From a virus, in IMG/VR virus record IMGVR_UViG_3300020579_000012, positions 4,946-68,945 of that record: a stretch of DNA of 64,000 nt. One strand, 5' to 3'. Below the pieces are notes generated by a model. That model had not been told where the DNA came from and searched no databases. It was given only the letters and a program-made list of their open reading frames with translations. Shown piece after piece: positions 539-54,667 of this stretch (the first letter of the stretch is position 1; each line of letters begins with the position of its first letter). The position numbers were made by a program, and so were the translations under genes.

Positions 539-575
539 TCCTCTGCTCCTTCTTCTTCTCCCCTGGTCGCGAAAA

Positions 576-18857: not shown

Positions 18858-18865
18858 AGCTTCCC

Positions 18866-22884: not shown

Positions 22885-25296
22885 TCAAAATTCAATATCA
22901 GCCTGTCGTTGGCTCGGTTGAATCGTTGGCTTACCGAACTGAGCTACCTCGTCAAGGGCGCCGGTCGGCGGGTGTCCATTTGACCACGTAAGACCTCCCC
23001 AGCCGCGTGCCTCACCGCGCCGGACCTCTCTAACATTCGCTCCTCGAAGCGTCTTGTTAAACTCGCGCGTTGACATCGGTTTTCTACCACCATCCTCAGA
23101 CCAGATTTTGTACCGATCGTAGACAAGCGGTCCAGCCAGCCAGCCGTTGGAATCATCACGGCAGCACTCCCGGAGGAAGTCATAAGCTGAGTTGCAGTCG
23201 CGTCTGTACTCCTCAAGCGCATTCTTTGAAGACCCAGGTATTGTGAATCGACCGCGAGTCACAAGGCGACTAAGACCATCGACAGCCCGGGACAGGAACG
23301 CCGATAGAAGTCCTGATTCTGAAACCAGCTTCTCTGAGTATTTTTTGATCTCGTTTGCGGTGTCACGGATCCGCTGATTGAATTCAACAAAGAGGAACCG
23401 GTCGAAATAAGCCGACGACCGATCCGTCGCCCTCGGCATCTGATTCGTTGCGAAGACCATCCGGCAGAACGGCCGGAACCAGAAAGGCGCCTTCCCTTTC
23501 TCCTCAGCTTTGATCTGGTTACCGTCGGTGATCTGTTTGAATATTCCAGTGTTCTCAAGCGCCTTCGACTCAAGCTCGTCGTAGCAGTTCGCGAGCTTAC
23601 CGATCAAAACCGAAGCCAGGAATCGTTCCTCGGTAAGGCTTTGAAGCGAGCAGTACGCTATATTTCTTTCGCCGATAAGGTGTTCGACGAGCTCAAGGAA
23701 CGTCGATTTTCCGTTGCCACCTTCTCCTACCATAACAAGACATTTCGTCATCGAAGCGTCTGGGATCATCATATGCCCGACGTATTCCTCTATCATGAGG
23801 ATCGCATCTTCCGGAAGTATTGACTTAAAGAACTTGTCGAGCGTCTCGGACTTCGCGTTTGGATCCCAGGCGACCGGGATTTGGATCGTCGAAATGTATT
23901 TTGGGTCGTGCGGGGAAAGCTGTTTTGTTCTCCAGTCGAGCATTCCGTTTTTGACGTTGATTAGAGTTTTTGCATGGAGATCGACTTCGTCGTACGGTCT
24001 CTTTGAGAGTTCCGTGATGAGCTCGACGACTTCGGTCAGGTGCTTATCCCGGAGAGACTTGCCCATCGCTTTCACGATCTCGCGACGCGCAAAGTCAGAT
24101 CCACCGGGCTTGAAGACGCCGTCCTTGTAGAAGGACAGTCGAATACCTTTCCCGTCATCGCCTATCGGTGTTGCCAGGAAGCGCGTTTCGGACATGATAT
24201 GCGCAGCCAGGAGCGCTGGAACAAGCTTTCCATTCTCGTCGAACCATGGGGGTCCGTCTGAAGGGCCTCTAAGCTCATCGTCCTTCCGGCGTTCCTTTCG
24301 ATCATCCTTCTCTTCGGCACGCTTAATCTCTTCACGTGCCCAAATATCCTCGACTATTTTCTCGATCTCGTCGTCCGGGAGCGGTGGACGATTCTTCTTG
24401 TTCCAGTCTGTTATTGCGTAGAGAGCGAGTTTTCTTGTTTTAAGTTTTGCGCAGTAGTGTCCAGCCATTGCAACGGCCGATAGATGTCGTCCGCCGTAAG
24501 GTCCGCCGGATTCATCGACACCATCTTTAATCTGCTCGATTTTAGGGTCACGGGACGTCGTTGATATTTTTGCGCGGTCCTTCTCTTCCTGCTCGATCTC
24601 GAGGTCATCGACTGATTTCTTTAGGTCCGTGATTGAGAAGTCCTTGAAAACCTCTATCGGGTAACGGTTCCAGGTCGCATCGACGATCTGGCACCATTTC
24701 GGATCTTTAGGATTCTTCAGGTTCATGAAACCCGGCATCCGAAGGATTCTGCGCGGGTCATGAATTGAATCAGAGATCTTAAAGTAGTCCATGATTCCTG
24801 CGCAGACTGGACGCGCTAGTTCTTTCGGATATGGCTTATCGAAGAGCCAGTAGGCGTGCATGCCGCGTCCGGACTCGAGGACGATTGATGGTTGAAGGTC
24901 TCTTGCTTTAAAGTCTGCGACCACTCCATCGAACTGCGCCCGCACGGCCTGCTCGTTTCCATGGAAATCAACATCGACCCAGGCGGCAACGTAGTGTGAA
25001 ACATCGGCGTTCGTTCCGTGCTTCTTCGGTTTCCGGAATCGTGGATTGATGCAATGATGAATATTTTCGACTTGAGTCCGGTTCATGTGATCGAGTTGTC
25101 GTTCGATCGTCGGCCAGTCGGAGAGGACTTGGGCGACCGTGTAGAACATTGCCCGCATCCGCTTAGCGTCGGGGTTCTCCTGCGTCGGTCGGTACTGGAG
25201 CAGATTGAACTCGACGAACCAGTCGCTCGGGGCGGACCCCCAGAGCTCCCGTATGAACTGCGTCGGAGTTACCTTCTCCGACGGTTGATCGATCAT
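22885..25296 (-). CDS. bifunctional primase-polymerase / SF3 (D5/P4-type) helicase
   Basis: AAWVDVDFHG and SGRGMHAYWLF (PrimPol-like); VMVGEGGNGKSTFLE (Walker A); NCYDELE (Walker B). Confidence 0.9.
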   Translation of the reverse strand: MIDQPSEKVTPTQFIRELWGSAPSDWFVEFNLLQYRPTQENPDAKRMRAMFYTVAQVLSDWPTIERQLDHMNRTQVENIHHCINPRFRKPKKHGTNADVSHYVAAWVDVDFHGNEQAVRAQFDGVVADFKARDLQPSIVLESGRGMHAYWLFDKPYPKELARPVCAGIMDYFKISDSIHDPRRILRMPGFMNLKNPKDPKWCQIVDATWNRYPIEVFKDFSITDLKKSVDDLEIEQEEKDRAKISTTSRDPKIEQIKDGVDESGGPYGGRHLSAVAMAGHYCAKLKTRKLALYAITDWNKKNRPPLPDDEIEKIVEDIWAREEIKRAEEKDDRKERRKDDELRGPSDGPPWFDENGKLVPALLAAHIMSETRFLATPIGDDGKGIRLSFYKDGVFKPGGSDFARREIVKAMGKSLRDKHLTEVVELITELSKRPYDEVDLHAKTLINVKNGMLDWRTKQLSPHDPKYISTIQIPVAWDPNAKSETLDKFFKSILPEDAILMIEEYVGHMMIPDASMTKCLVMVGEGGNGKSTFLELVEHLIGERNIAYCSLQSLTEERFLASVLIGKLANCYDELESKALENTGIFKQITDGNQIKAEEKGKAPFWFRPFCRMVFATNQMPRATDRSSAYFDRFLFVEFNQRIRDTANEIKKYSEKLVSESGLLSAFLSRAVDGLSRLVTRGRFTIPGSSKNALEEYRRDCNSAYDFLRECCRDDSNGWLAGPLVYDRYKIWSEDGGRKPMSTREFNKTLRGANVREVRRGEARGWGGLTWSNGHPPTGALDEVAQFGKPTIQPSQRQADIEF

Positions 25297-26881: not shown

Positions 26882-27091
26882 CTAACCTTCCTTCTTCTCT
26901 TCCTTGGTGTATCGCTTCGTTGTGACAGAATTGGACACACCATCCGGACCGAGTTTTACTTTACACCGATCGCACGGAGCAGTCGTCACGCGGATCTTCG
27001 CGGCGTGCTCTCCTGGAGGCAGGCGCCGGTCTGATTCGAGACCGAGCGACCTGCCGCAGTATCCGCAGATGACGACCTTAGGGAGACTCAT
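26882..27091 (-). CDS. zinc-ribbon protein (69 aa)
   Basis: CGYCGR..CDRC. Confidence 0.5.
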   Translation of the reverse strand: MSLPKVVICGYCGRSLGLESDRRLPPGEHAAKIRVTTAPCDRCKVKLGPDGVSNSVTTKRYTKEEKKEG

Positions 27092-28881
27092 TGACGTATC
27101 TCCTTTGGGGCGCCATTCCGGATTGCCTCATGGAACCAGTCCGGAAGCATCTTCGAGTTCTTCCAGAGGAATGACTCAAAACCCGCGTCCAGCAGATAGG
27201 TCGTTGCCCAGTCGTCGCGCGAGCGTACGGAGCGTCCGTAGGACTGCACGATCTTGAGGGCGCAGAGCCATGCGTACCACTGGGAATCCATGTCCATACG
27301 CTGTTTGATGACCCTGTCCTTCATATTGGGCCATGGCATTTTTGCGATCACCTGGAAGCGCGAGAGGTCACCTTTCAGGTCGAGACCTTCATGCATGGCG
27401 GGCGCGACGATGACGGAGTCTGTCCGGCGGGCGTGCTCGGCCAGCATTTCGTCCTTCGACTCGAAGTGCTCCTGGAACAGAAGCCGGTCGCCGTGCGGAG
27501 CAGGGATGTCATTGAAAAGGATCTTTGAGAGCGAGAAGGAGTGGCAGTGGATGATTCCACGCTGCCCGCGGTGCCGTTCCAGGATCTCGATGACTTTTCG
27601 GACGAACTTCGGCTCGGTCGGATCCTTCGGGTTCTGCTCGCGCGTGAAGTATTTGAAACCGAAGTTTCCGCAGTAAGACTTGTGGATCAGCCGGTTCTCC
27701 ACCGGGAAGTCGCATGGCGTCCGGATTAGCTCGACCTCGTCCATCGAGAGTCCGAGGTTCCGGGCCCAGACCTTGACGTCCAGGATCGTTGCCGACATGA
27801 AGCAGAGGCGATCGGCGTGACGGAACAGTAGATCCTGTGCGAAGTCCTTTGCGTAGAGTGGGCGGGCGACGATCTTCCGGCGCTCGTCGTCGGTCCTTTT
27901 GTCGTTGTACTTTACGACCTCCAGGATCCATTCGGTCTTCTCTAAGAAGGTCATGAAGTTCGAGAGCTTACCGTCCAACTCTCTGAGGGCGTCGATCTCA
28001 GCCGCGGACAGGTCCACGTCGTCGGAGTCCATTGAGCTTTCTGCTTCGCCTTCTGCGGCCTTCAGACGCCGCATGATGAGCGCGACGAGGTCGGTTTCTG
28101 CGAGCCATTCCAGAAACTCCGCCTTCGTCCTGATCTCACGGGTGATCTGGACACCGACCAGCGAGAGCGCCCACTCCGAGAGCTCCAGCGTCACGAATCC
28201 CATCAACTGAGATTCGCAGTTGTGCGCCTCGTCGACGATCATGAGGGCACGTTTCGGGAACCGCGAGATCCGCTTCTGGAAGAGGAAACTTGAGAAGTTG
28301 AAGAGCGAGATCGCTGCGTCGTGGCAGCGCTGAAGCTGCGCCCAGTACGGGCAGCGGTGGAAAGTTGCGGGGAGTGCAAGGCCGACCGCGGCTTGCATCG
28401 GCGAGATCTGCGCTGCGGAGGCATATTGATTAGCCTCGTCCGTGATGCACTCGCCGAGGATGCCTTTCGACCGGCGGCGGCAGACGCCGTCGCCAGCGTC
28501 CTGGCCATCTTCGGCAAGTTCGTGCGTGCAGGAGTAGTTCGACCGGCCCTTCAGCGTCTCGATGTCCGGTGCTGGGTAATCGGTGGCATACTGGTCCTGC
28601 AGGATCTTCTGAGAGGTCAGCATGAAGGTCGATTGTCCGTCCGACCGGAGGGCGTTCGCCAGGGTTTTGCAGGCGTCGGTCTTTCCGGCGCCGGTTGGTA
28701 GCTCTCCGACCACCACGCGCTTTCCCGCCGCGAAGGCCGCAGCGGCGCGCTCAAGGAAGTAAGTCTGTTGCGGGCGTGGAGTTTTCCCTGGTGTGAAGTG
28801 CCCGAGAAGCTGTTCCGCTGTGAATGACCAAGGCTTCACGTTTGAACTGGTTTGCGGTGGCGCGGCAGGCTTTGTGACCAC
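27088..28881 (-). CDS. XPD/DinG-like SF2 helicase with Fe-S cluster cysteines
   Basis: GELPTGAGKTDA (Walker A), IVDEAHNCE (DEAH), Cys residues in YSCTHE..GVCRRR..GECITD..HRCPYW. Confidence 0.9.
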   Translation of the reverse strand: MVTKPAAPPQTSSNVKPWSFTAEQLLGHFTPGKTPRPQQTYFLERAAAAFAAGKRVVVGELPTGAGKTDACKTLANALRSDGQSTFMLTSQKILQDQYATDYPAPDIETLKGRSNYSCTHELAEDGQDAGDGVCRRRSKGILGECITDEANQYASAAQISPMQAAVGLALPATFHRCPYWAQLQRCHDAAISLFNFSSFLFQKRISRFPKRALMIVDEAHNCESQLMGFVTLELSEWALSLVGVQITREIRTKAEFLEWLAETDLVALIMRRLKAAEGEAESSMDSDDVDLSAAEIDALRELDGKLSNFMTFLEKTEWILEVVKYNDKRTDDERRKIVARPLYAKDFAQDLLFRHADRLCFMSATILDVKVWARNLGLSMDEVELIRTPCDFPVENRLIHKSYCGNFGFKYFTREQNPKDPTEPKFVRKVIEILERHRGQRGIIHCHSFSLSKILFNDIPAPHGDRLLFQEHFESKDEMLAEHARRTDSVIVAPAMHEGLDLKGDLSRFQVIAKMPWPNMKDRVIKQRMDMDSQWYAWLCALKIVQSYGRSVRSRDDWATTYLLDAGFESFLWKNSKMLPDWFHEAIRNGAPKEIRQ

Positions 28882-32780: not shown

Positions 32781-34433
32781 ATGAGCAACACTGTCGAGAA
32801 TCTCGATCGTGGCGTGTCAGGCACGTCGGCGACGCTCGACAAGATGCACCAGCTCGTCGCTCAGGGAAAACTCGACCCGACGTTTCAAAAGATTGCGACT
32901 TGGATCCGCGCATCCGTCTCACAGGATCGTCGTGGCAAGACCAAGGATACGGCCGACGCGATCTTCGATTGGGTGAAGACGAGCGGGATCTTTCAGTCAG
33001 ATCCATTTCAGATCGAGAAGATTGAAAGTCCGATCGAAGCGATGCGTCCGATCATCCAGGCGCGTCAGGCAGGCACATATACGGGACCCGGTCTCTTTGT
33101 CGGTGACTGCGACACGTTTGCGATCATAACTGCGACACTTGGCGGCATTCTAGGTTTCCAGTACGCCTTCGAGACCGCGAAGGTCGACGCCTCTCGTCCG
33201 GACGAGTTTTCGCACGTCTGGACGGCACTACTTGTCGACAACGACTGGTACCCGCTCGACTCCTCGACTCCTGGCGCCTACCCAGGCTGGCGCCCTCCTG
33301 TCGCGCCGAATCTGCTGGCGCGTTGGCCGGAGCAACCGATCGAGAACTTCGTCAAGGGGTCCGTCATGAGCGCATTCAACCGCGGACTCGGCGATAACCA
33401 GACCTCACCGACTGCTGGAATTGACACAGCGTATCCGCAGGACTACATCGCCTACGGTGTTCCGAAAGATTTTGGCGCTGGCCCTGGCGTGATTCCGCAA
33501 GCGAACTTCGATGATCTTCAACTTCTCCCGCCGCATGAGACGCAGATTCCGGACGCCGACATGCAGCCGGACATGCATCTGCTTAAGGCTGCGCCGCTAC
33601 TAAACCCATCCGAACGGATCGAGTCGATCTCTGGATTCCCGACAAACGACCACGGAAACCCGTACTTCCAGAGCAAACCCGGCAACCCACGCTACAAGGT
33701 AGAAAACCAGTTTTACCCGCCCGGCTCGCGCTGGAACGGGCAGATGGGTCACGACATCGTCCGGTACGTTAAGACCGGGTCGTACGTGAAGGTCAAGAGT
33801 GCCGAGTCCCCAGAGAGACAAGTGAGGGCGAATATGGCTCAACCGATGATGGTTCGCAGGCGTATCATCATGTCGAACGGACGACAGATTCCGTTCGGTG
33901 CGATGGAGGGCCTCGGTCAGACTGATCCTGGTCTTGTCACGTCACTTGATCCGTCCGTCTCAGACCCGACAGCCACACCACCGGACACGTCGGGGATGGT
34001 TACGTCGCTTGGGCCGACTCCGGCTCCAGCTCCGACTCCAACTCCGGCTCCAGCACCATCTTCGGCCTCCATCATGTCGACCGCCGTCACGTCGAATCAG
34101 CTTGCACCGACGCCGACTCCAGCCGCCTCATCGAGCCCGCAAGCCGCTGCCGCAGCATCCGCTGGAGGATCTGTCTGGTCGTCGATCTCATCTGCCTTCC
34201 AGGCTGCTGGAACGATCGCCCCGGCCGCGATGCAGTCATCGTTGATGCAGTCCGTTATCGCAGCGACGAACAAGCTTGCCGGGAAAACCGTTCTCGCACC
34301 CGGCGTCGTTCCATGGTACCTGAACCCGATCACGCTCTTCACGCTCGCCCTGATTGGTGGCGGCGGCTACTACATTCTGCACAAGAACCGTCCTGGGGGC
34401 TCCGGAACTCGCCGTCGCCGTCGGTACGCCTAA
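32781..34433 (+). CDS. transglutaminase-like cysteine peptidase with S/T/P/A-rich linker and C-terminal TM anchor
   Basis: GDCDTFAIITATL..SHVWTALLV..WYPLDSS (Cys-His-Asp layout); ends ..VVPWYLNPITLFTLALIGGGGYYILHKNRPGGSGTRRRRRYA. Confidence 0.7.
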   Translation: MSNTVENLDRGVSGTSATLDKMHQLVAQGKLDPTFQKIATWIRASVSQDRRGKTKDTADAIFDWVKTSGIFQSDPFQIEKIESPIEAMRPIIQARQAGTYTGPGLFVGDCDTFAIITATLGGILGFQYAFETAKVDASRPDEFSHVWTALLVDNDWYPLDSSTPGAYPGWRPPVAPNLLARWPEQPIENFVKGSVMSAFNRGLGDNQTSPTAGIDTAYPQDYIAYGVPKDFGAGPGVIPQANFDDLQLLPPHETQIPDADMQPDMHLLKAAPLLNPSERIESISGFPTNDHGNPYFQSKPGNPRYKVENQFYPPGSRWNGQMGHDIVRYVKTGSYVKVKSAESPERQVRANMAQPMMVRRRIIMSNGRQIPFGAMEGLGQTDPGLVTSLDPSVSDPTATPPDTSGMVTSLGPTPAPAPTPTPAPAPSSASIMSTAVTSNQLAPTPTPAASSSPQAAAAASAGGSVWSSISSAFQAAGTIAPAAMQSSLMQSVIAATNKLAGKTVLAPGVVPWYLNPITLFTLALIGGGGYYILHKNRPGGSGTRRRRRYA

Positions 34434-34437
34434 GTAA

Positions 34438-34707
34438 ATGTCTCAGATCATCTACGTCCGGAGACCCGGCCTCGGCGACGTGACTTCATCGATCACGGAC
34501 GCTGCGACCGCGTCTATGGCTCCCGTGATCGAGCAGATGCTCGTGAATGACGTTCTACCGATGGTTGTTGTCGGTATGGTTGCGGGAGCCGCCGTCGCCG
34601 CGTTCATCGGCACATGGTTTTCGCACAAGGCGATGCGTTCTGCAGGAGTTATCAGGAAGAATCCTGTCGCGCGGACGTACGTCTCGCTCCGACGGAGGCG
34701 TGCGTGA
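34438..34707 (+). CDS. membrane protein (89 aa) with basic tail
   Basis: IYVRRPGLGD near the N-terminus; TM segment MVVVGMVAGAAVAAFIGTWF; ..IRKNPVARTYVSLRRRRA. Confidence 0.55.
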   Translation: MSQIIYVRRPGLGDVTSSITDAATASMAPVIEQMLVNDVLPMVVVGMVAGAAVAAFIGTWFSHKAMRSAGVIRKNPVARTYVSLRRRRA

Positions 34708-34730
34708 GCTGGCTGAATTTAAAATCAAGG

Positions 34731-37697
34731 ATGATGTCAGAGCTTCGGCGCTGGGCTCGAGGTATTACAGAGACCAGCGGCCCGGAGTTCAACTTCGACG
34801 CCGAGTCGGCAATCTGGTGGTTCGCAAACGACTACCACAGCGGCGGCGGCAGCGAGCTCTATCAGATCCTCTCGATGTCGAAACTCCGTCCCGGTCCGTC
34901 GCACCGTTCTGTCTCAGACGAGGGTGAGATCCCGGCGATGATGTACGAGGCTCTCGAGCAGAAGTTCATCCCGAAGGGTAAAGCTAAACGGAATCCTTCC
35001 CGTGTCCGAGCGAACAGTAACTACGCTCATCAGGACGCGAAGCTTTTCCAGATCGTCTACATCGGTCGATCGAAGTACCGAGCGATCGGACGGCTGCCAG
35101 ACGGAATCATGCTCTGGAAGGGCTCAGGTCCGACGATTTATATGTTGATCGAGAATGCCCAGGGCGAGTGGGGAACCGGTCGCTTCGACAACAAACTCTT
35201 CGCGCAGCCGGTCGCCCAGCAGTTCTCGCGTCTGCCGACAGAGACCAAGCGGTACATCATCACCCAGCAGAAACGCGGTTCGGCGATCACTCCGGGCGGC
35301 ATCTGGAAGAACTCCGGAGGCTCCGTGCGGAAGAATATCTACACCTTTAACAATCCCGGCAACGCCCAGAAGATTCTCGCCGAGAACTTCATGCGCGGCG
35401 CGAACTCCGGCGTTGCATCGTCGATGTACATCCACGGGAACAGGATCTACTCGTACGGCCCGCACTTCCCGATCGCGCAGCGGAACGACGACGGGACGAT
35501 CCTGATCCGGCACCCGAGCAAGAAGGCGCCGTCAAAGACGACTGCGGGGCACATCTCCGCCGTCGTGAATGCTGCGCGTCAGGTCTACTCGCCCGACTCG
35601 ATTCTGTATGACACGGCCGGGGAGCTTTCGGCTGAGGCGAAAGGTCCGGCGGCGTACTCGAACCCAGGTGTCAGAAAAAACATCTACACGTTCAACAATC
35701 CGCGTGACTCCTCTGTCGAGTCCGCCGCTCGCGCGGTCGGTCTGTTCGTTGGAGTTTGGTCGCCTGGAGACGGACAGACACGATATCGCTTCTTCTCGAA
35801 GACAACGCGCGGTAGTCGGTATGCCGATTACCACGAGGGCGATGGCATCTACACGGCGCTCGGACGGAAGGACGCGCTGGCGTTCATTGCGGCATACGGG
35901 AAGGGCCGTGGAGCCAGGAGAAATCCAAAGACGTCGGTATATGTTATCGAAGGCTTCACACACCGTGGTCGACGCGGCAAAAGTCAACGGCGTGCGGAAT
36001 TCAGGACGCCGTCTCTCACAGAGGCACGTGCGAGAGCGGAGCAGATATTCCAGGAGACCGGCGTTGTTGTTGCGATCACTCAGAGGAACCCACTGACACG
36101 CTCGGAGGCCGGATACCTGCTTCGGCATGCGAAGGCAGACGTCACCGAGGCAGCCGTCGCTCGCCGACATGGCCTGACCTACGAGCAGAAGTACGCCGTC
36201 GGACACGCCCGCGGGATCGGCTTCGCGGTCCAGGAGACAGGACCGAAGGCAGCGCGGAAGGCCTGGGTCGATCTCCATACGAGGTTGGATCGGGTCACTC
36301 GGAATCCGTGCTTGAATAATCCAACCTGCGCGAATCCGAGGCATCCGCACGGTCCTGTCGAGAACACAGCCTACGGACAGCGTCGTTCGTATGCCGACTT
36401 CGTCGCGCGGAAGCGTGCGGAGTACGGTGACAAGTTCGACGACTCGGATCTCGCGCCTCAGTTCATCCAGTACTACGAATCCGGCGCGCGGATCGAGGTC
36501 GAGTTCGTCTCGTCGACAACCGGTAAGCCGTACGAGACGAAGCGCGGTCGCGTCGGCGTGACGACCGGCTGGAAGCCTGTCTTTCTGCTCATGCTGACAA
36601 CGAGAAGTATGGGTTCTCCGTACACGCTCGGGAAAAATGATCGTGTAGTCCGGTTCGTCCGGTCGAACCCTCTTACCGTCTCCGAAGACAGAGAGATCGA
36701 GCACGTCGCAAGACGTGAGAGGATCATAGGCGAGCAGATTCAGAGTCCCGGCAGCCGCGGGTATGCACTCGGTCACTCGGACGGAATGAACCACGTCCGG
36801 AGGAAGTACGGCCCTATTCGTCGCAACCCTCTCCTCCAGACGATCGGCCTGATGGCAAACCCGCCGGTCTCTGACCAGTGGAACAGGATGACGTCGCGCC
36901 AGCGACTCCATGCGCTCGAGTTCGTCGGCTACCCGACGGATTTCGCCAGTTCGATGGCCCGGCGCCTCTGGATGACGCTTCCTGGGACTGCTCGCGAGCG
37001 CCTCGAGTCCGCTCGGCTCGACACGAGCTCGCGCGGGACGACCCGTCGGCGCGTCGCTGTGCCGGTCGGGGCGAATCCTCTGACACGGACAGAATCAGGT
37101 CAGATCCTTCGGGATGCGAGATTTGACGCCCGTTACGGATCGACATTTCAGGGTGGACACACTCGCTCATCCCGTGCCGGGATGGCCTGGGCGAAGGCGA
37201 AAGTCGTCCGTCAGTACGGACCGAAGAGCGCTCGTCGCGCTGCGAGTCGGATTGCCGATAAAGCTCGGACTGTGGCGCGGACGGCGATGTCGAACCCCGG
37301 TGTCCGCTTCCCGAAGCCCGGCACGAAGTTGACCGTTGCACAAGCCTTCGAGCTCGCGCGCCGGATCGGCGATCGGGCCCTGATCGAGCAGTGCCGGAAG
37401 GCGCTGAAGCTCCAGAAGGCCGCCAACAAGGACGTCAAGTGTGTCATCTGGAAGACCTTTCCGATGGGCTCGAAAGGACAAATCGACTCGGTGATCGCCC
37501 TGACGCACTACGGCGACTCGCCGGAGACGATGTACCGGCCGCCGCCAGGATCGAAGAAGGGCAACCACATGTACCGTCACAACTGGGGCGAGAAGGGCGG
37601 CAAGCAGACCGTCCCGCTGCTCGCCTCGGCGGACGGGAAGATGCTGCTGATGCCGCTTGAAGGTAAGAAGGTCGCTTCCGATTGGCTGAGGCATTGA
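34731..37697 (+). CDS. large multi-repeat virion protein (988 aa)
   Basis: Trimmed to ATG 34731 (AAGGA SD). VRKNIYTFNNP occurs twice with different codons; three NPLT..GH..YGP modules; more than ten basic-N-P motifs. Confidence 0.7.
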   Translation: MMSELRRWARGITETSGPEFNFDAESAIWWFANDYHSGGGSELYQILSMSKLRPGPSHRSVSDEGEIPAMMYEALEQKFIPKGKAKRNPSRVRANSNYAHQDAKLFQIVYIGRSKYRAIGRLPDGIMLWKGSGPTIYMLIENAQGEWGTGRFDNKLFAQPVAQQFSRLPTETKRYIITQQKRGSAITPGGIWKNSGGSVRKNIYTFNNPGNAQKILAENFMRGANSGVASSMYIHGNRIYSYGPHFPIAQRNDDGTILIRHPSKKAPSKTTAGHISAVVNAARQVYSPDSILYDTAGELSAEAKGPAAYSNPGVRKNIYTFNNPRDSSVESAARAVGLFVGVWSPGDGQTRYRFFSKTTRGSRYADYHEGDGIYTALGRKDALAFIAAYGKGRGARRNPKTSVYVIEGFTHRGRRGKSQRRAEFRTPSLTEARARAEQIFQETGVVVAITQRNPLTRSEAGYLLRHAKADVTEAAVARRHGLTYEQKYAVGHARGIGFAVQETGPKAARKAWVDLHTRLDRVTRNPCLNNPTCANPRHPHGPVENTAYGQRRSYADFVARKRAEYGDKFDDSDLAPQFIQYYESGARIEVEFVSSTTGKPYETKRGRVGVTTGWKPVFLLMLTTRSMGSPYTLGKNDRVVRFVRSNPLTVSEDREIEHVARRERIIGEQIQSPGSRGYALGHSDGMNHVRRKYGPIRRNPLLQTIGLMANPPVSDQWNRMTSRQRLHALEFVGYPTDFASSMARRLWMTLPGTARERLESARLDTSSRGTTRRRVAVPVGANPLTRTESGQILRDARFDARYGSTFQGGHTRSSRAGMAWAKAKVVRQYGPKSARRAASRIADKARTVARTAMSNPGVRFPKPGTKLTVAQAFELARRIGDRALIEQCRKALKLQKAANKDVKCVIWKTFPMGSKGQIDSVIALTHYGDSPETMYRPPPGSKKGNHMYRHNWGEKGGKQTVPLLASADGKMLLMPLEGKKVASDWLRH

Positions 37698-37707
37698 GGG
37701 TGAGATC

Positions 37708-38817
37708 ATGATCGGAGCACTTGTATTTGCGAACCCCGGGCGGCCTGTCGCCGCACGGCGGAGACGTTCACGTTCCAGAACCGCCCGCGCGACGGGCAAG
37801 GAGATCAGGATGGCACGCACTCGTACGCGCCGTCGGGCAGGGCGGCGTAGGAATGCCAAAGGGCATTTCATGAAGACACGCCGGTCGTCCCGGCGTCGGA
37901 ACCCCAGCGGTCACATCAAGGTAGGCCGCCGCTGGAGGAAGATCACGAAGTTCGCCACGCGCCGCAAGCGCGGCAAGCGTCGCGGACAGATTCGTGGGTT
38001 TCACTTTCCGAAGCGGTATCGCCGGTCGCGTCGGCGCGTCCACCGGAACCCGGTGGTCGTGTCGAATCCGCGTCGGAGCCGTCGTCGGGCCCGCCGGAAT
38101 CCGTACCGTCGGAGCTATCGGCACGCGCGCCGGAACCCGGCCGTGTCGATGCGTCTGTCGAACGATCCGATCGCGGCGATCAAGAATGCGCTGATGTCGG
38201 CGTTCTCGATGGACACCGCAGAGACGCTGTTCCAGATGGGCCTCGGCTTCGGCGGTGCGATGTCTATGAGCAAGTGGCTGTACGTTCAGCCCTGGATGCC
38301 CGCCACGGCCACGACGGCGCCGTTCGTGCAGGTCGGGTCGACGCTGTTGTCGACCGCGCTGTTGACCGGTGCGTCGGTTCTGCTCAAGAATCCGAAGTTG
38401 ACGGCCCGGGTCCTGACCGGCGGTCTCTTCGCAACGCTTTGGCAGGGGCTCTCTCTGGCGGTTGCCGGAACCCCGGTCCAGCAGTTCATTCCGACCCTCT
38501 CCGGTTCGCCGGAGACCGATGCCTTCCGGAAGGCGATCGAGGCGGAGGTCCTCAAGGAGCTCAAGGGTGGCGGCGTCCACGGCTACCTGCGTGCGGCGGG
38601 TTCCGAGGGGATGTCGACCTACCTGCAGCCTGCCGGGATCGCGTACCTCAAGCCCGCGGGCAGCGAGGCGTACCTGACCCAGGTGAACACCGAGCGTGCG
38701 AACGCCGGGATGGGCGCCTATTTGACCCAGGTCAATTCCGAGATGGCGAATGCCGGAGTCGGACACGACCAGGGCGACGACGAGTTCTCCCGTCGGGGCA
38801 TGTCGGAGAGGTTCTAG
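37708..38817 (+). CDS. protamine-like Arg-rich N-terminal domain fused to a membrane domain (369 aa)
   Basis: About 51 Arg in the first ~150 aa by my count; hydrophobic core LGFGGAMSMSKW..STALLTGASVLL..LFATLWQGLSLAVAG; repeated YL-x-x-AG / AYLTQVN units. Confidence 0.7.
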   Translation: MIGALVFANPGRPVAARRRRSRSRTARATGKEIRMARTRTRRRAGRRRNAKGHFMKTRRSSRRRNPSGHIKVGRRWRKITKFATRRKRGKRRGQIRGFHFPKRYRRSRRRVHRNPVVVSNPRRSRRRARRNPYRRSYRHARRNPAVSMRLSNDPIAAIKNALMSAFSMDTAETLFQMGLGFGGAMSMSKWLYVQPWMPATATTAPFVQVGSTLLSTALLTGASVLLKNPKLTARVLTGGLFATLWQGLSLAVAGTPVQQFIPTLSGSPETDAFRKAIEAEVLKELKGGGVHGYLRAAGSEGMSTYLQPAGIAYLKPAGSEAYLTQVNTERANAGMGAYLTQVNSEMANAGVGHDQGDDEFSRRGMSERF

Positions 38818-38833
38818 ATCAGAGCGATCGAAG

Positions 38834-38899
38834 GGAGCACCGGGGACGTGAGTCTCCGGTGCCTCCCCGAGGGGTGTCCAGAACGGACGCCCCTCGGGG
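38834..38899 (+). terminator. two adjacent GC-rich hairpins after gene 37708-38817
   Basis: GGAGCACCGG..CCGGTGCCTCC and CCCCGAGGGG-15nt-CCCCTCGGGG. Confidence 0.4.
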
Positions 38900-38991
38900 A
38901 GCCGGGCCAGAACGCCAGCCCGTCCCGCGGTATTTTGTGGACGAAAGTCCCGGCCGATGCGGAAGTGGCGTGAGATCGAAAGGTGGAAGCC

Positions 38992-39654
38992 ATGAATATG
39001 GGACAGGCGGCGGCAGCCGCGGCGGCGGATCCCGCCAGCCAGGGAGTGACGGTCGTTCAACCGTACTACAAGATCACGCAGGGCGTTCCTGCGGCGATCG
39101 TGCGGTCGTACAAGCAGCCCTTGTACGACTCCGAGATCATCCTGGCGTCGGCGCCGCAGCGTGAGTTCACGCTGTACCAGAAGCCCGTCGGCCAGACGCT
39201 CAACGACGGTGTGACCGTGAAGACGTTCTTGTACTCGAACCAGACCCAGGCGGGCTCCCTCGGGACTCCCCTGAGTTTCGACGTATTCGGGTATAACTGC
39301 CGCATCTGGGGCAGCCCGGCGTCCAAGCTCCTGTCGATCGGCAACTACACCCTGGTCGAAGCCGCGGGCGTCGCCCAGGTCGTTTTCGGACAGGACACGA
39401 CCTTCCTGACGATCCCGATCGAGGACGTGCCGTCCGGCGTCGACACCGAAGGTCAGGCCGTGACCGATGCTCCGCACATCGGCTGGGGCGTGAGCGACAA
39501 CATCTACCGGTTCGATATCGGTGGACGTGCGCTCCACATCAACGCGACAGAGCCGTATTCCGTCAAGATCTCCTGGCCGAGCGGGCTGACCGGCACGACC
39601 GGCAACCTGCTCTTCCGCTGGTTCATGAGGGGCATCCTCTACAAGGGCGTCTAG
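38992..39654 (+). CDS. beta-rich capsid-like protein (220 aa), candidate small major capsid protein
   Basis: Ala-rich N-terminus; ..SLGTPLSFDVFGYNCRIWG..QVVFGQDTTFLTIPIEDVP..LLFRWFMRGILYKGV; flanked by strong hairpins; paralog of 3197-3844. Confidence 0.6.
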   Translation: MNMGQAAAAAAADPASQGVTVVQPYYKITQGVPAAIVRSYKQPLYDSEIILASAPQREFTLYQKPVGQTLNDGVTVKTFLYSNQTQAGSLGTPLSFDVFGYNCRIWGSPASKLLSIGNYTLVEAAGVAQVVFGQDTTFLTIPIEDVPSGVDTEGQAVTDAPHIGWGVSDNIYRFDIGGRALHINATEPYSVKISWPSGLTGTTGNLLFRWFMRGILYKGV

Positions 39655-39681
39655 AGCGCCTTTGGCATCGAGTGTAACTTC

Positions 39682-39704
39682 GCGTGCCCCGAAGAGGGGC
39701 ACGC
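39682..39704 (+). terminator. hairpin directly after the capsid-like gene
   Basis: GCGTGCCCC-gaaga-GGGGCACGC (9-bp stem). Confidence 0.45.
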
Positions 39705-39786
39705 CTTGATGGACTCGACGAACTAGAATAGCGCCCGCACTGTGCGCGGTCCGCTTCCCTGCTGAGTAGCTCGGAAGGAGACGACG

Positions 39787-40728
39787 ATGAGTTGGGGTCA
39801 GGTACCGACATTCCTCCGCGACAAGGACACCGGCCAGATCTACATGAACCCAGCGAAGGACTGGGTTCAACCGTTCGAGCTGACGGTCTCGAAGCCGAAC
39901 CAGATCATCCACCTCGCAGCAGGAGAGAGTCGTGGGGTCTTTCCGCTCACGGCCCAGTACGACGGGCCGATCGAGGTTTTCTATGTCAAAGCGAACGTCT
40001 ATGCTCCGGCCGAGGACCCGACACAGCCGGGCGCGCTCCTTCAGACGTACGATATCGATTTCCTGCTGGAGCATCCTGGAAAGCGGATTCAGTTCTCGAA
40101 CAGGATCGTTCCGCTCCTGGCCCTATCCGGGAACGCTGCGCAGCCGTACGTCCTGCCGGAGACGATCTTTGTTCCGCCGGTCCAGTCGCTCAATCTGACA
40201 CTCGTAAACAACGATCTTGTGAACGCCGTCTTCGTTGAGTTTGTTCTTGGCGGGATCAAGTTCTATCCGAATCAGGCGCCCGCCGGTCAGATCAAGGACG
40301 AGGTTTGGAAGTACGTCGATCGGCGTGAGCGGACCTATTGCTACTTTCAGACGACTGACGAGCCGGTCGTTCTGACGGCGCTCCAGGAGACCATGTTCTT
40401 CATGACGATCCCGGACAACTCGGACTTTGAGTGCTTCAAGCTCTCGCAGCAGTCGACCGACGTCTTTCGCTGTTTGATTCGAGATGGTCAGAATGACCGG
40501 GCTCTAACCGGTGATCGGATCCACCGGGACCTGCTGTTCGGAGGTCACGCACAGATGCCACTAGGAGCACAGTTCCTTGGCTCCGGTGGGATCTGGCCCG
40601 CTCGGTGGGCGTCATCCTGGCTGATTCGACGATCGACGAAAGTCCAGCTCGACCTGTCGGACATCTCGGACGCTTCGAACACGATCAAGGTCGTCTTCGC
40701 GGGGAGAAAGATCTCGTATGTCAGCTAA
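39787..40728 (+). CDS. beta-rich capsid-like protein (313 aa), candidate large major capsid protein
   Basis: ..PYVLPETIFVPPVQSLNLTLVNN..VFVEFVLGGIKFY..TIKVVFAGRKISYVS: alternating-strand pattern throughout. Confidence 0.6.
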   Translation: MSWGQVPTFLRDKDTGQIYMNPAKDWVQPFELTVSKPNQIIHLAAGESRGVFPLTAQYDGPIEVFYVKANVYAPAEDPTQPGALLQTYDIDFLLEHPGKRIQFSNRIVPLLALSGNAAQPYVLPETIFVPPVQSLNLTLVNNDLVNAVFVEFVLGGIKFYPNQAPAGQIKDEVWKYVDRRERTYCYFQTTDEPVVLTALQETMFFMTIPDNSDFECFKLSQQSTDVFRCLIRDGQNDRALTGDRIHRDLLFGGHAQMPLGAQFLGSGGIWPARWASSWLIRRSTKVQLDLSDISDASNTIKVVFAGRKISYVS

Positions 40729-41887: not shown

Positions 41888-42787
41888 ATGGCAAGCGGTG
41901 GAATTGGAAATCAGTCCCCGGCGTCACTCTTCCAGGCACGTCTGGACACGACGGACGGCGTCAATAATCTCCTGACCCTGAAACAGTACCAGGGAAACAA
42001 AGTCGTCGTTTCCGGAGTGACGGTCGTGATTCCCGGAGGCGGTCTGACCGTCTCGGTAGCTGCGAACCTGATCGACCCGGCCGGAGCGGACTTCGGCTCT
42101 CCCGGCGTCGCCAGCACGCTATACTATGTCTACATCTCGAACGCAAGGTCTCCATTTGCGCCGTCGTCGATCCGGCTCTGCGCGACCGCACCGACCCTGG
42201 TGAACGGTGTCAAGTACCTCGGTGCCGCCGGGAACGCGCTCAACTGGCGCTTCGTCGGCTGGGTCTTCCTGAACGCCACGCCGCAGTTCGAGTCCTCACT
42301 GACGGGAAGACTCATCGTCAACTACTACAACCGGCTGCTCCTGAAGCTATTCACCTGTCCCGGATATGTCGACGACAACGCGGCCACCCTATACCTGTGT
42401 AACAATACGGTATGGGATCAGATCTCGAAGGGGACTGTAACGGGCGGCGTCGACAGCCGCGTGACCTACATCGCCAACGGCGAGGATGCTCAGTCATTCA
42501 AGATCGCCGGATCCGCGGACAATACTGTAGGCCGTCCGGGACTTATTGGGCTTGGTATCGACACACCGAACACCTCAAAAGTAGAGGCGATCCTGGATAA
42601 TCCAACCGCAGGGGATATCTCGATCCATGAGACATACGAAGATGTGGGCGTTGAAGGCCACCACACTGCCGACCTTCTTGGCATGCAGACTGCCGTGAAT
42701 CCGATGAACGTCTTCGCGGACGACGTCCGGAACGGCGGCACGAAAGACCCATTTTTGACTTACCTCACGGGAACGCTGTTCGCGTAA
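41888..42787 (+). CDS. spike/fibre-like structural protein (299 aa)
   Basis: MASGGIGN.. N-terminus; beta-rich. Confidence 0.6.
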   Translation: MASGGIGNQSPASLFQARLDTTDGVNNLLTLKQYQGNKVVVSGVTVVIPGGGLTVSVAANLIDPAGADFGSPGVASTLYYVYISNARSPFAPSSIRLCATAPTLVNGVKYLGAAGNALNWRFVGWVFLNATPQFESSLTGRLIVNYYNRLLLKLFTCPGYVDDNAATLYLCNNTVWDQISKGTVTGGVDSRVTYIANGEDAQSFKIAGSADNTVGRPGLIGLGIDTPNTSKVEAILDNPTAGDISIHETYEDVGVEGHHTADLLGMQTAVNPMNVFADDVRNGGTKDPFLTYLTGTLFA

Positions 42788-42791
42788 CGAT

Positions 42792-43460
42792 ATGGCGAGC
42801 GGCGGCGGCCCCGGCGGGGGCGGAGGCCCCGGAGGGTCTGGAGGCGGTATCAAGCACTATTGCGAAGTCCGATTGGACGCGACCATGGCCCTGCTGGGCG
42901 CCACCCGGTACATGGTACCCTGGACCCATGTCGTCTACGACGAGAGCGGGATCTACTCGATCGTCGTCGATCCGTCTCCTCCGGCAAACTGGAATCCGGA
43001 CGGCCGGTACGGTGCGTTCGATATCCCGGAGGACGGATCATGGACCCTCTGGTGTCAGGCCTATCAGCAGACATCGGGAAGCACGGAACACGGTCTGAAC
43101 TTTCTGAGAGATATTCCTGCGGTTCAGCACTCTCCGACAGCACTTCCCGGAGACCACGCGCGGGGAGAATGGCTCCTACTCCAGAACCCGGTATCTCCGG
43201 ACGCTACGAACCAGCCGATGACGTCCATCTACAAGGGTGCGCTGTTTAAGGGTGATCGAATCTACTGCGAGGTGCAATCCGCGGACCCTTTCTACCTTCT
43301 GTACAACGATCCCGCAATACCTCCTCCGGGCTGGGGTGGCACCGTTCAGGACTGGATCAATGCCCAGGCGATCCGGCCGAAGGAGCAGTACGTTTACCCG
43401 AGGATGGTGGCGTACATGGATGGCCCGTTGCCGCCACTCTTGGATAAGATTCTGAGCTGA
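42792..43460 (+). CDS. Gly-rich N-terminus plus C1q/TNF-like-looking beta domain (222 aa)
   Basis: MASGGGPGGGGGPGGSGGGIKH..; ..GAFDIPEDGSWTLWCQAY..IYCEVQS. Confidence 0.55.
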   Translation: MASGGGPGGGGGPGGSGGGIKHYCEVRLDATMALLGATRYMVPWTHVVYDESGIYSIVVDPSPPANWNPDGRYGAFDIPEDGSWTLWCQAYQQTSGSTEHGLNFLRDIPAVQHSPTALPGDHARGEWLLLQNPVSPDATNQPMTSIYKGALFKGDRIYCEVQSADPFYLLYNDPAIPPPGWGGTVQDWINAQAIRPKEQYVYPRMVAYMDGPLPPLLDKILS

Positions 43461-43470
43461 ATGGAACTCT

Positions 43471-43860
43471 ATGGCTAAAGGCGGAGGTCCTGGTGGCGGC
43501 TCCGGTTCGAAACAAGCCGGAAACGTAATCGACGTAACTGGAACCAGCACCGATATCAACACCACTGTATTCGATGTTGTTCAGGCTCGAGGGCTGGTCG
43601 GCATTGGAGCAATCAAGAATACGGGCGCCAATAGCATTACGATCATCGAGACCGTCACCGACAAGTTCGGCGTCACGACGCCTGTGCCGACGGACATCCC
43701 GGCCGGAGACCAGTACATCCTGAATCCGCAGTCCAGTTTCAACGATGAGATCACGAACTCCTGGCCCCCATATACGGAGTACAAACTGGAGGTTCAGAGC
43801 ACGACCGCCGGTCAGCCGAGCACCTTCGAGTTGCACTACATCGATGTTTCACCGTCCTGA
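43471..43860 (+). CDS. small structural protein with Gly-rich N-terminus (129 aa)
   Basis: MAKGGGPGGGSGSKQ.. Confidence 0.55.
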   Translation: MAKGGGPGGGSGSKQAGNVIDVTGTSTDINTTVFDVVQARGLVGIGAIKNTGANSITIIETVTDKFGVTTPVPTDIPAGDQYILNPQSSFNDEITNSWPPYTEYKLEVQSTTAGQPSTFELHYIDVSPS

Positions 43861-50706: not shown

Positions 50707-52035
50707 ATGCCTCAGAAACCGCAGCTCATCGACATGATCCGGACGGTCCCGGAAGTCGCCGTGCGACTTTGGGCGGGCGGAGTCCCGCGCCCGTCCGACG
50801 ATGGCGTCCGGATCGAGTTCGAGGGCCACATGCCGGTATTTCATGCGGACATCTACCAGCAGGCCGACAAAGTCGCTCGGATCCTGGCGATCCGCTGGGG
50901 CAGTCGCAAGCTCCGGTCGATGACGGACCTTTTGGATCTCCGGCACGCCGCTGAGGATGTTTTCATCGAAAATCTCTTCCATCGAGAGGACACACCGAAA
51001 GTCCTCTTTGTTCCGGCTGGTGAGACCGCCTCCGGCTTCTACCGTGCGATGATCCCGGCAGATCTGATGAATGAGGGCGGCCGGATCATCTCCCATTGGA
51101 CGAGTCGCCCGGATGTTGCGAAGGCACTTCGCTACGACGTCCTTTGGATCCAGCTCATCACGGCGCCGATTCTGATCGAGATCGCCCGTCAGGCGCAGGC
51201 GAGCGGCGTCCGGATCGTCTACGACATCGACGACAACCTGTCTGCGATTCCAGACGAGAATCAAGCAAAGAACGTCTACGGGACTCCGGAAAAGCAGGCG
51301 GAGATCCGGGCGATGATCGATTTGGCGGATCTCGTCACAGTCTCGACGGCACCGCTCGGGCGGGTCATTGCCGCTCGGCACCCTGGCAAACGGGTCGTCG
51401 TCCTTCCGAATATGGTGACGGCGAACGTTGCTCCGCGTCGGCATACACCGAATCCTGGCTTTGTTCGGATACTCTGGGCCGGAACGCCGACACATAAGCG
51501 GGACCTCGCGATCGTTGCACCCGCACTCCGGGAGCTGCTCCGGGAGCGGAACGGAAATGTTCGCTTTACGCTCTTCGGCGAGCGCGTCCCGGAGGCCCTG
51601 GCGGACTGCCAACAGTGGATCGACCTTAAGAAGCCGGTCGACTTTCAGGACTACCACGACGAGCTTGCCGAGCTCGCCGCGGACTTTGGGATCGTCCCGC
51701 TCGAGGCGAATGCCTTTAACGAATCGAAGTCCGGCTTGAAGGGTCTCGAGTACGCCTCCGCGGGCTACCCGATGCTCTGTTCTCCGGCCGCTGAGTACCC
51801 GGACATGGTCCGGGACGGATTCCCGTCCGCACTCGTTGCCGATGGCGACTGGCTTCCCGCGCTCCGGTACATGGTCGATCTGACGGCCAAGGAACGCGAT
51901 ATCATGGGGAAGGCTTGCATTGACTGGGCCACCCGGAACCGCTGCATGGGGACGAACCATGCAGACCAGTGGGCCGACGTTGTCCATGATCTTCTCGGGA
52001 AGCCGACGAAGGCGGAACTGAAGCTGGTGAGTTGA
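50707..52035 (+). CDS. glycosyltransferase (GT1/GT4-like) inside the late module
   Basis: ..IDLADLVTVSTAPLG..VVVLPNMV..RILWAGTPTHKRDL..NESKSGLKGLEYASAGYPMLCSP. Confidence 0.8.
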   Translation: MPQKPQLIDMIRTVPEVAVRLWAGGVPRPSDDGVRIEFEGHMPVFHADIYQQADKVARILAIRWGSRKLRSMTDLLDLRHAAEDVFIENLFHREDTPKVLFVPAGETASGFYRAMIPADLMNEGGRIISHWTSRPDVAKALRYDVLWIQLITAPILIEIARQAQASGVRIVYDIDDNLSAIPDENQAKNVYGTPEKQAEIRAMIDLADLVTVSTAPLGRVIAARHPGKRVVVLPNMVTANVAPRRHTPNPGFVRILWAGTPTHKRDLAIVAPALRELLRERNGNVRFTLFGERVPEALADCQQWIDLKKPVDFQDYHDELAELAADFGIVPLEANAFNESKSGLKGLEYASAGYPMLCSPAAEYPDMVRDGFPSALVADGDWLPALRYMVDLTAKERDIMGKACIDWATRNRCMGTNHADQWADVVHDLLGKPTKAELKLVS

Positions 52036-54232: not shown

Positions 54233-54667
54233 ATGGCAGGCGGCGGAGGCAGCGGGACGATTTACCTGAGAGGCTCTACCTATCAATGCTGCGGCAGCAT
54301 ATCCCAAAATAAAGACGTGGTGACGATCCGGAAGGGCCAGCCAGTTGCCGTTCACTCGAGCGGAGTCGGAGTCGTCCTGGCCGGTGCCGCTCTCAACGGG
54401 ATGTACGCTGTTGGACTAGCGAAGGAAGACATTGCGGTAGGCGCGAGCGGACCGATCGCAGACTTCGGCGACTTCCAGATGTCCGACTGGACACCCGTCG
54501 TCGGTTCGCCGTCCCTGGCGGCGAAGGCAACGTACTTCCTAAGTGACGTGGTAGGCCAGCTCTCGACAGTTTCTCCGTCATCCCCTGGAGACGTCAGTCA
54601 GATTGTTCTGCGTGAGATAGCTCCGGACACTGCGTCGCTACGAATAGAATCTCCGATTTTGATCTGA
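54233..54667 (+). CDS. small beta-rich structural protein, paralog of 54676-55152
   Basis: MAGGGGSG.. N-terminus; ends ..LRIESPILI. Confidence 0.55.
   Translation: MAGGGGSGTIYLRGSTYQCCGSISQNKDVVTIRKGQPVAVHSSGVGVVLAGAALNGMYAVGLAKEDIAVGASGPIADFGDFQMSDWTPVVGSPSLAAKATYFLSDVVGQLSTVSPSSPGDVSQIVLREIAPDTASLRIESPILI

Follow-up and report, generated by a model that had tools for sequence, protein, structure and literature searches.

What does a protein that joins an arginine-packed N-terminal half to a hydrophobic helical domain do in a virus that keeps its gene directly upstream of capsid-like genes? The question is raised by an open reading frame (ORF) in the stretch of viral DNA analysed here, the 64,000 nucleotides that make up positions 4,946 to 68,945 of the IMG/VR record IMGVR_UViG_3300020579_000012 and are referred to below as the window. 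An earlier note had read the product of this ORF (hereafter, the target) as a protamine-like arginine block fused to a multi-pass membrane domain, which could tether the genome to an internal membrane.

37708..38817, plus strand: target ORF, 369 residues (long isoform), identified from the ORF list, from a substitution bias at codon position 3 that includes residues 1-34, and from the start MIGALVFANPG, present in all loci compared.

The target is encoded by a real, conserved protein-coding gene. Judged by its sequence, it represents a new protein family for which no characterised counterpart was found, and we likewise found none for the apparent fusion, within one protein of a virion module, of a strongly basic arm with a helical hydrophobic core and a repeat tail. 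The explanation that we favour for the whole chain, tentatively and with somewhat less than even confidence, is that of a virion core protein combining DNA binding, a membrane or oligomer core and capsid docking. The basic region would bind and neutralise the genome of about 69 kb, the helical core would sit in or on an internal lipid layer or else oligomerise, and the repeat tail would dock onto the inner face of the capsomers. In this way the target would couple DNA condensation to the formation of the membrane and the capsid shell. Speaking for this explanation are the universal architecture of the family, its extreme and conserved charge, the slightly acidic C-terminal half and the synteny with capsid genes, as well as the type of virus and a conserved internal start.

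The first issue is whether the reading frame itself is correct. Across 10 homologous loci, the substitution rates at codon positions 1, 2 and 3 are 0.14, 0.11 and 0.27 for residues 1-34, 0.18, 0.17 and 0.39 for residues 35-150, and 0.27, 0.20 and 0.37 for residues 151-369. Because position 3 is the most substituted in all three parts of the ORF, the plus strand and the frame, as called by the earlier note, are correct. The contrary possibility, that the arginine-rich reading arises from high G+C or from a gene on the opposite strand, could draw on the local G+C of 63-64% and on a 768-residue antisense ORF (37768-40074, minus strand) that overlaps the target. It is contradicted by the position 3 bias in the plus frame and by about 90 homologues that conserve motifs rather than low complexity. 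Moreover, the antisense ORF extends over three genuine genes plus an intergenic RNA structure, and it is spurious because it crosses conserved hairpins and a capsid gene whose product folds at a predicted local distance difference test score (pLDDT) of 90. The non-gene explanation is thus effectively refuted already. A naive gene caller choosing the longest ORF would nevertheless pick this high-G+C artefact, and a similar antisense call was made by one gene caller in the related locus L017.

All of the approximately 90 homologues are metagenomic and have the same layout, therefore the target is not a product of chance. A search with its C-terminal half alone returned 51 clusters at 44-100% identity, also all metagenomic, many of the matches residing on contigs 68-75 kb in length. 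When 1.84 billion representatives were searched exhaustively with a profile, there were 47 matches, and the family is therefore rare. Some homologues seemed to be devoid of the basic region; however, these apparent short forms turned out to be late start calls or contig ends.

The target, each of its halves and 25 neighbours were scanned against Pfam and PHROGs, with no informative match for the target. In Pfam-A there was no family at E<=0.01 for the full-length protein, and the N-terminal half had only a chance match (E 0.05). Neither tblastn nor megablast searches of 50,697 phage records detected a match, and a PDB profile search with the C-terminal domain yielded chance matches only. Separate profile searches with the two halves, a check proposed in the earlier note, found a family for neither, and the absence of a characterised counterpart, which the note had stated, holds within Pfam, PHROGs, PDB and sequenced phages.

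The distribution of charge along the chain is extreme. As the earlier note had counted, there are 51 Arg within the first 150 residues (34%), accompanied by 9 Lys and a single acidic residue, and the runs it quoted (RRRRSRSR, RTRTRRRAGRRR and RRSRRRARRNPYRRSYRHARRNP) are all present. The net charge is +58 over the first 155 residues and -1 over the remainder, about +57 for the whole protein. In the family, the basic region is variable in length, with a net charge of +40 to +64 in near-full-length members and a median Arg plus Lys content of 42%. To neutralise half of the genome's phosphates, which number roughly 138,000, about 1,200 copies of the target would suffice. The N-terminal half of the target is composed of the following elements:

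37708..37809, plus strand: N-terminal head of 34 residues, M-I-G-x-L-V-F-x-N-P-G plus a basic linker, confined to the long isoform.
37810..38163, plus strand: Arg/Lys-rich region, residues 35-152, punctuated by Asn-Pro and proposed from its composition to be the nucleic-acid-binding part.
37897..38022, plus strand: conserved mini-domain within the basic region, residues 64-105, NPSGxIKVGRRWRKITKxA...RGQIRGFxFP.
38071..38142, plus strand: tandem duplication of a 12-residue unit, RRSRRRARRNPY / RRSYRHARRNPA, detected with Tandem Repeats Finder.

Although the earlier note called the block protamine-like, this description is appropriate only for its charge. Protamines and other sperm nuclear basic proteins are very small, with Arg making up roughly half of the residues or more. 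In the target, Arg accounts for only 34% of the first 150 residues, neither the whole protein nor residues 1-151 match a Pfam family, and the basic region holds a conserved non-repetitive mini-domain that the note had missed. In the family alignment of this mini-domain, N65, P66, R85 and G93 are invariant and W76, K78, T80 and P101 nearly so. AlphaFold2 (AF2) predicts a β-hairpin and a helix, with mean pLDDT values of about 60-76 in blocks of 10 residues and a peak at residues 71-80, whereas pLDDT stays below 50 at residues 1-45 and 110-151. The duplication (period 36, 1.9 copies, 78% matches) is built from a 36-nt unit encoding RRSxRxARRNPx; the basic region grows by tandem duplication. In distant members, the basic region repeats a unit absent from the target, N-x-W-x-G-Q-P-R-R-H-A-x-A-A-x-x-G-W-R-R-R (P0167, P0170, P0192, P0196, P0188, P0191, P0194, P0195 and L017:2120-2630).

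The head motif is kept even in distant homologues (P0160, P0178, P0183, P0184, P0187, P0191 and P0192), and it resembles an internal LLQTIGLMANPP segment of the mosaic protein encoded upstream. We considered a signal peptide or a lipobox and rejected both, the head being too short and having neither a basic n-region nor a Cys. In phage T4, basic internal proteins packaged with the DNA bear a short N-terminal capsid-targeting peptide that ends at a protease site (L/I-x-E). The head MIGxLVFxNP of the target could be analogous to this targeting sequence; T4, however, is a tailed phage with an HK97-fold capsid and a different cleavage motif, and has no homology to the target.

The earlier note had also missed a nested start through which the head may be bypassed:

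37798..37812, plus strand: internal Shine-Dalgarno sequence AAGGAG (37798-37803) and in-frame ATG (37810, Met35), the start of a predicted 335-residue short isoform.

A Shine-Dalgarno-like sequence (AAGGAG, AGGAGA, AGGAGG or GAGGAGG) lies 6-9 nt 5′ of the internal ATG in 11 loci and persists despite differences in the encoded residues (GKEIR, GRRVK, GRRKK, RGGQT). Gene callers mostly start the homologues at Met35. The upstream start has a Shine-Dalgarno sequence as well, and residues 1-34 evolve as coding sequence. Since the internal ribosome-binding site and ATG are conserved and the upstream start is also coding, the pattern points to nested products of 369 and 335 residues. The short isoform may then be the bulk DNA binder, and the long isoform may contribute a head directed at a partner that the upstream protein uses as well.

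The C-terminal half follows an equally conserved plan:

38164..38484, plus strand: helical, moderately hydrophobic core, residues 153-259, defined by AF2 helices and invariant columns.
38491..38571, plus strand: PTLSG motif (PTLxG in the family) and amphipathic helix FRKAIEAEVLKELKGG (FRxAIExEVLxEL).
38584..38763, plus strand: C-terminal peptide repeats, three YLxxAG and two AYLTQVNxExANAGxG.
38779..38814, plus strand: conserved C-terminal tail DEFSRRGMSERF-COOH, defined by invariant columns.

In the core, AF2 places helices at residues 154-165, 168-192, 204-224 and 229-252, with pLDDT of 64-78 in blocks of 10 residues over residues 171-250. Its motifs include an invariant GxGFGG, a basic KNxxLTAR (K..K...R) loop and GGLxATLWQ. 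Around PTLSG and the amphipathic helix (residues 269-286 in the AF2 model), P262, T263, L264, F273, R274, A276, E278, E280, V281, L282 and E284 are invariant. The repeats pointed out by the earlier note are present as YLRAAG, YLQPAG and YLKPAG, followed by AYLTQVNTERANAGMG and AYLTQVNSEMANAGVG; their number differs among homologues, while the motif (YLxPAG / AYLTxxE) is retained. The tail has invariant E359, F360, E367 and terminal F369 (...EF.....E.F). In PRD1, itself a double jelly-roll virus, the small virion proteins P16 (vertex anchor) and P30 (tape-measure) link the icosahedral shell to the internal membrane. The likeness of the target to them would be functional, as a linker of shell and membrane; neither has a basic DNA-binding arm or homology to the target.

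Whether the core enters a membrane is less clear than the earlier note suggested. Where it mentioned several TM-like (transmembrane-like) segments, three helices are predicted (residues 168-192, 204-224 and 229-252), but their hydrophobicity is marginal. They are rich in Gly, Ser and Thr, the best 19-residue Kyte-Doolittle windows reach only about 1.4-1.5, and the summed Hessa free energies (dG) are +3 to +8 kcal/mol, compared with -0.8 to +1.1 for bona fide TM segments of neighbouring genes. The term multi-pass membrane domain was therefore an overstatement. On the other hand, a few distant members come near TM values (Kyte-Doolittle about 2.0-2.2, dG 0.6-2.3), and the basic N-terminal region, the basic K..K...R loop and the acidic C-terminal part fit the positive-inside rule for three helices with the N-terminus in and the C-terminus out. 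Throughout the family, a very basic N-terminal region is paired with a hydrophobic helical core.

The marginal hydrophobicity invites another explanation, namely, that the target is a soluble core or scaffold-like protein that does not insert into the membrane. The helices would then assemble into an oligomerisation bundle, with the basic arm serving to condense DNA and the tail to bind capsomers on their inner side, much like the Arg-rich arms of small icosahedral viruses or internal scaffolds. This is possible, if somewhat doubtful. The hydrophobicity lies under the usual TM thresholds and below that of the true TM proteins of the same module, helix 3 contains conserved R, Q and E, and the gene occupies the position that scaffolding genes have relative to capsid genes. 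However, the helices, with lengths of 21-25 residues, contain many small residues and are connected by short basic loops, and those of some distant members have the higher Kyte-Doolittle values given above. Scaffolding proteins are typically acidic and helical throughout, so that the target fits phage scaffolding proteins in gene position, but not in its net charge or its disordered basic half.

Immediately downstream, the earlier note had placed two strong hairpins and capsid-like genes, and both are there:

38837..38901, plus strand: two adjacent conserved RNA hairpins between the target and the first jelly-roll gene.
38992..39654, plus strand: 220-residue β-rich protein, putative single jelly-roll capsid protein on the basis of synteny.
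39787..40728, plus strand: 313-residue double jelly-roll, capsid-type protein, assigned with AF2, Foldseek and BFVD.

The 313-residue protein, encoded by the second gene downstream of the target, has 101 homologues. Its AF2 model (pLDDT 90.1, predicted template modelling score 0.87) consists of two eight-stranded sandwiches. Foldseek matched this model, with probabilities of 0.99-1.0, to the cellular two-jelly-roll proteins GH172 and PHM and to STIV (3j31_P), PRD1 P3 (1hqn) and an iridovirus major capsid protein (MCP), although the template modelling scores (TM-scores) to the structural matches are modest, 0.36-0.64. The best match in BFVD was I1ZBI0 (256 residues, TM-score 0.54/0.64), and giant-virus MCPs were matched as well. 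The model thus points to a double jelly-roll capsid-type protein, a candidate for the role of the major capsid protein. The 220-residue protein has no family match in Pfam or PHROGs; it adjoins the target downstream in every case, distant relatives included. The target itself is always located between the mosaic basic protein and the jelly-roll capsid genes, and this too extends to distant relatives.

The hairpins (38837-38862 and 38863-38901) have a minimum free energy z-score of -5.8 and compensatory changes at 16 of 26 pairs across 9 loci, the first being often closed by a GNRA-type loop. They are not followed by a U-tract, no terminator-type match was found at the site, and no Rfam family corresponds to them. 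They might serve as a 3′-end stabiliser, an attenuator or in some other role.

This virion module belongs to a large tailless prokaryotic virus with a jelly-roll capsid. Contigs of 68-71 kb contain the same genes with differing start points; the genome is therefore circular or circularly permuted, about 69 kb in length, and the window (1-64000), considered together with loci L015, L003 and L004, represents most of it. The hallmarks of Varidnaviria (the PRD1-adenovirus lineage) are found here, a capsid-type protein with two jelly-rolls and an FtsK/HerA-superfamily ATPase. The latter is a 468-residue HerA-type ORF that occupies positions 1-539 (minus strand) and extends past the start of the window (L015:10590-11996). 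Its features include the Walker motifs A (AQSKKGKT) and B (LFFEEA), a C-terminal coiled coil and possibly a winged-helix end, and it matches HerA chains in PDB with E values of 5.6e-6 to 1e-3. Since its gene is located among the early ones, remote from the capsid genes, its role as a packaging motor is uncertain. The structural module also encodes several small proteins in which TM segments are evident. We rejected a tailed phage, as there was no match to a terminase, a portal or an HK97-type protein and, instead, a jelly-roll protein and a HerA-type ATPase were found. The double jelly-roll protein, the HerA-type ATPase and the small TM proteins indicate a kind of virus that normally has an internal membrane. 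The idea of a DNA-to-membrane tether is thus partly sustained: the target is a genuine product of the morphogenetic module of such a virus, but the multi-pass membrane domain is not supported.

The region upstream of the target adds a feature that was also missed by the earlier note, a common punctuation by Asn-Pro (NP) dipeptides, and two genes are needed to appreciate it:

34704..37697, plus strand: upstream mosaic basic protein, 997-1027 residues, net charge +74, Asn-Pro-rich (start at 34704 according to gene calls).
32781..34433, plus strand: transglutaminase-fold enzyme, 550 residues, with a C-terminal NP-TM-RRRRR (RRRRRYA) anchor.

The target contains 7 NP dipeptides where 0.7 are expected, and the mosaic protein 14 where 2.2 are expected; in all other proteins of the window the counts are near expectation, so the enrichment is confined to these two neighbours. 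Over 94 family members, 342 were observed against 39.6 expected, about nine-fold, whereas the reverse PN occurs only 6 times. The sites have a common context, a hydrophobic residue at -3 and R, S or A at -1, and are found directly after the head and exactly at the junction of the basic region and the helical core. In the mosaic protein, 25 of 58 module boundaries fall within 6 residues of an NP (9.5 expected).

Such a pattern could mean that the two proteins are precursors, cut at Asn-Pro into small basic DNA-bound peptides and a hydrophobic/repeat fragment. The cutter would be the transglutaminase-fold enzyme or else the Asn itself; Asn-Pro self-cleavage is known in reovirus μ1 and in FlhB/YscU. 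The process would be reminiscent of adenovirus core maturation. In addition to the enrichment, its restriction to two adjacent proteins of the window, the shared context, the position of the sites and their coincidence with module boundaries, this proposal gains from the enzyme encoded two genes upstream. The core of the enzyme (GDCDT...SHVW...LDxST, read by eye) displays a Cys-His-Asp triad that is invariant in 10 loci, and we regard it, speculatively, as a candidate maturation protease. In one distant relative (L020:1392-3227), a LAGLIDADG intein interrupts the enzyme gene adjacent to the catalytic Cys and the TM-anchored part has a gene of its own, the order being enzyme, TM-anchored protein, basic NP-rich protein, target homologue, 218-residue protein and 336-residue protein. 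Against processing, the candidate cleavage is read from sequence hints, Pro at P1′ is disfavoured by most proteases, and NP could instead form a structural turn, cap a helix or act as an SPKK-like turn that binds DNA. The enzyme, in turn, could be a cell-wall hydrolase or a transglutaminase, its Transglut_core match being weak (E 0.0023, below the curated cutoff). On balance, we consider processing rather unlikely. It would be compatible with a virion core protein, changing only which species is active.

A bolder version of the same idea, which we find improbable, envisions a prokaryotic double jelly-roll virus with adenovirus-like core maturation. The hydrophobic head would target the two basic precursors to the particle, a membrane-anchored transglutaminase-fold cysteine enzyme or Asn-driven self-cleavage would cut them at NP, and the small Arg-rich peptides would condense the 69-kb genome inside an internal membrane. 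Adenovirus, a double jelly-roll capsid virus, has Arg-rich core proteins, pVII and pX/Mu, to which neutralisation and condensation of the packaged dsDNA are attributed, and their precursors are trimmed by a viral cysteine protease of the adenain fold. The likeness thus comprises an Arg-rich protein in a double jelly-roll virus and, in the module of the target, a Cys-His-Asp enzyme next to basic proteins punctuated by Asn-Pro. The differences are just as evident. The target has neither sequence similarity nor a Pfam match to adenovirus core families; adenovirus is devoid of a membrane, and neither a hydrophobic helical domain nor a repeat tail is present in its core proteins; adenain and transglutaminase folds are distinct, and cleavage in the present case is hypothetical.

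The mosaic protein suggests still another role for the target. Its homologues range from 766 to 1213 residues, with cassettes inserted, deleted or relocated among close relatives, and only two PHROGs of unassigned function match it (phrog_8217 and phrog_7247). Mosaic multi-module proteins that are packaged and injected by other phages are known as polyvalent proteins; the upstream protein shares with them the variable assortment of modules among relatives, but Pfam and PHROGs scans recognised no known effector domain in it. The target might, therefore, be delivered into the host together with the DNA and this polyvalent-type protein, acting as a nuclease shield or a membrane conduit. Its gene adjoins that of the mosaic protein, the two share motifs, and the predicted helices look membrane-active and are joined to a putative DNA-binding arm. 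Nevertheless, searches of Pfam, PHROGs and PDB profiles recognised no anti-defence or pore-forming domain, and the conserved capsid-proximal position and docking-like C-terminal tail are better suited to assembly. Delivery thus appears quite improbable.

How does a virion core protein fare against known internal-membrane phages? PM2 (Corticoviridae), a tailless phage with an internal membrane and circular dsDNA, is thought to enclose its DNA as the membrane-containing shell forms, with a membrane patch interacting with the nucleic acid and membrane proteins P3 and P6 proposed to register the capsomers, a model of 'concurrent encapsidation' (PMC6356626). The target could combine the roles of capsomer registration and nucleic-acid patch. 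However, P3 and P6 are not described as strongly basic (PMC6356626), the PM2 genome is 10 kb as opposed to about 69 kb, homology was not found, and the target is only putatively inserted in a membrane. How circular genomes are condensed in such phages is an open question; host histone-like proteins were found in virion preparations of NO16, but whether they are components or contaminants is unclear (PMC13552765). A core-protein role for the target would fit both the PM2 model and this question.

The only comparably large internal-membrane tailless phage is SSIP-1, with a circular genome of 44 kb and a T=49 capsid (PMC6260650). Its genes (JN880423) come in a comparable order, those for an ATPase, a TM-anchored protein and a giant structural protein being followed by those for gp44, for two proteins of about 210 residues and for a 256-residue protein. 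The last, gp47, is probably I1ZBI0, the best BFVD match mentioned above, which has the same length of 256 residues. The positional counterpart of the target, gp44 (241 residues), also has hydrophobic helices but, unlike the target, is acidic (net -9) and has no Arg block. Comparing gp43-gp48 with the target C-terminal domain, the three jelly-roll proteins and the C-terminal domain of the upstream protein, hhalign found nothing significant, and a resemblance of the upstream protein C-terminus to gp43, noticed by eye, was thus not supported. The NP counts of SSIP-1 (28 observed, 18.7 expected) do not amount to a clear enrichment. Some (R/H)ENP motifs, which echo the NP motif described above, do occur there, namely, MRENPS at the gp41 start, VRENPQG in gp41 before the C-terminal TM helix, ARENPML in gp43 and HENPSG in gp44.

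Several considerations weigh against a virion core protein. The presence of the target in the virion and its binding of DNA are both inferences drawn from sequence. Linear PRD1 DNA is packaged by an ATPase into a preformed procapsid whose membrane is pinched off the cytoplasmic membrane (PMC6356626); were the same to happen here, a cytoplasmic domain with a charge of +58 would face the capsid rather than the DNA. Likewise, the HerA-type ATPase could package DNA without a condensing protein. The positional counterpart in SSIP-1 is not basic and has no sequence similarity to the target. The helices are of marginal hydrophobicity in most members (summed dG +2 to +8 kcal/mol). Finally, the AF2 model of the whole target is poor (pLDDT 54), and a fold search with it returned nothing below E 0.1, the model being too poor for use. 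With these reservations, the target appears to resemble in function both pVII/Mu of adenovirus and the proteins that link membrane and capsid in PRD1 and PM2, while being a member of none of these groups.

Nothing in the window matches sequenced phages. Genes at 7879-8664 (minus), 22885-25296 (minus), 27088-28881 (minus), 18120-21177 (minus) and 50707-52035 (plus) encode a tyrosine integrase, a D5-like primase-helicase, an XPD-like helicase and three glycosyltransferases. In addition, gene calls for the same genome include Cpn10 and methyltransferase genes; no tRNA genes were found. Four structural-module proteins on the plus strand (41888-42787, 42792-43460, 43471-43860 and 54233-54667) have glycine-rich N-termini, starting with MASGGIGN, MASGGGPGGGGG, MAKGGGPGGGSG and MAGGGGSG. 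Shine-Dalgarno motifs precede 27 of 43 genes (63%, compared with 17% for the background); the host is therefore prokaryotic, and a eukaryotic virus was rejected for the same reason. Which prokaryote it is remains uncertain because there are two metagenome-assembled genome labels, Thermoanaerobaculia and Thermoplasmata; there is a hint of Acidobacteriota.

Overall, our results suggest that the target may represent a new family of viral genome-condensing core proteins in what is itself an unusual virus lineage. In tailless membrane phages, especially those with circular genomes, it is unresolved how the DNA gets into the lipid vesicle and how it is compacted. The DNA-binding membrane patch of the PM2 model has no protein assigned (PMC6356626), and the target is a concrete, testable candidate for such a function. 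Should the NP sites indeed be processed, the core maturation of adenovirus would have a parallel in bacteria. The genomes reported for prokaryotic double jelly-roll viruses measure 7-18 kb (PMC5894146); at about 69 kb, the present genome is four- to nine-fold this size, and it bears on the origin of large viruses with this type of capsid.

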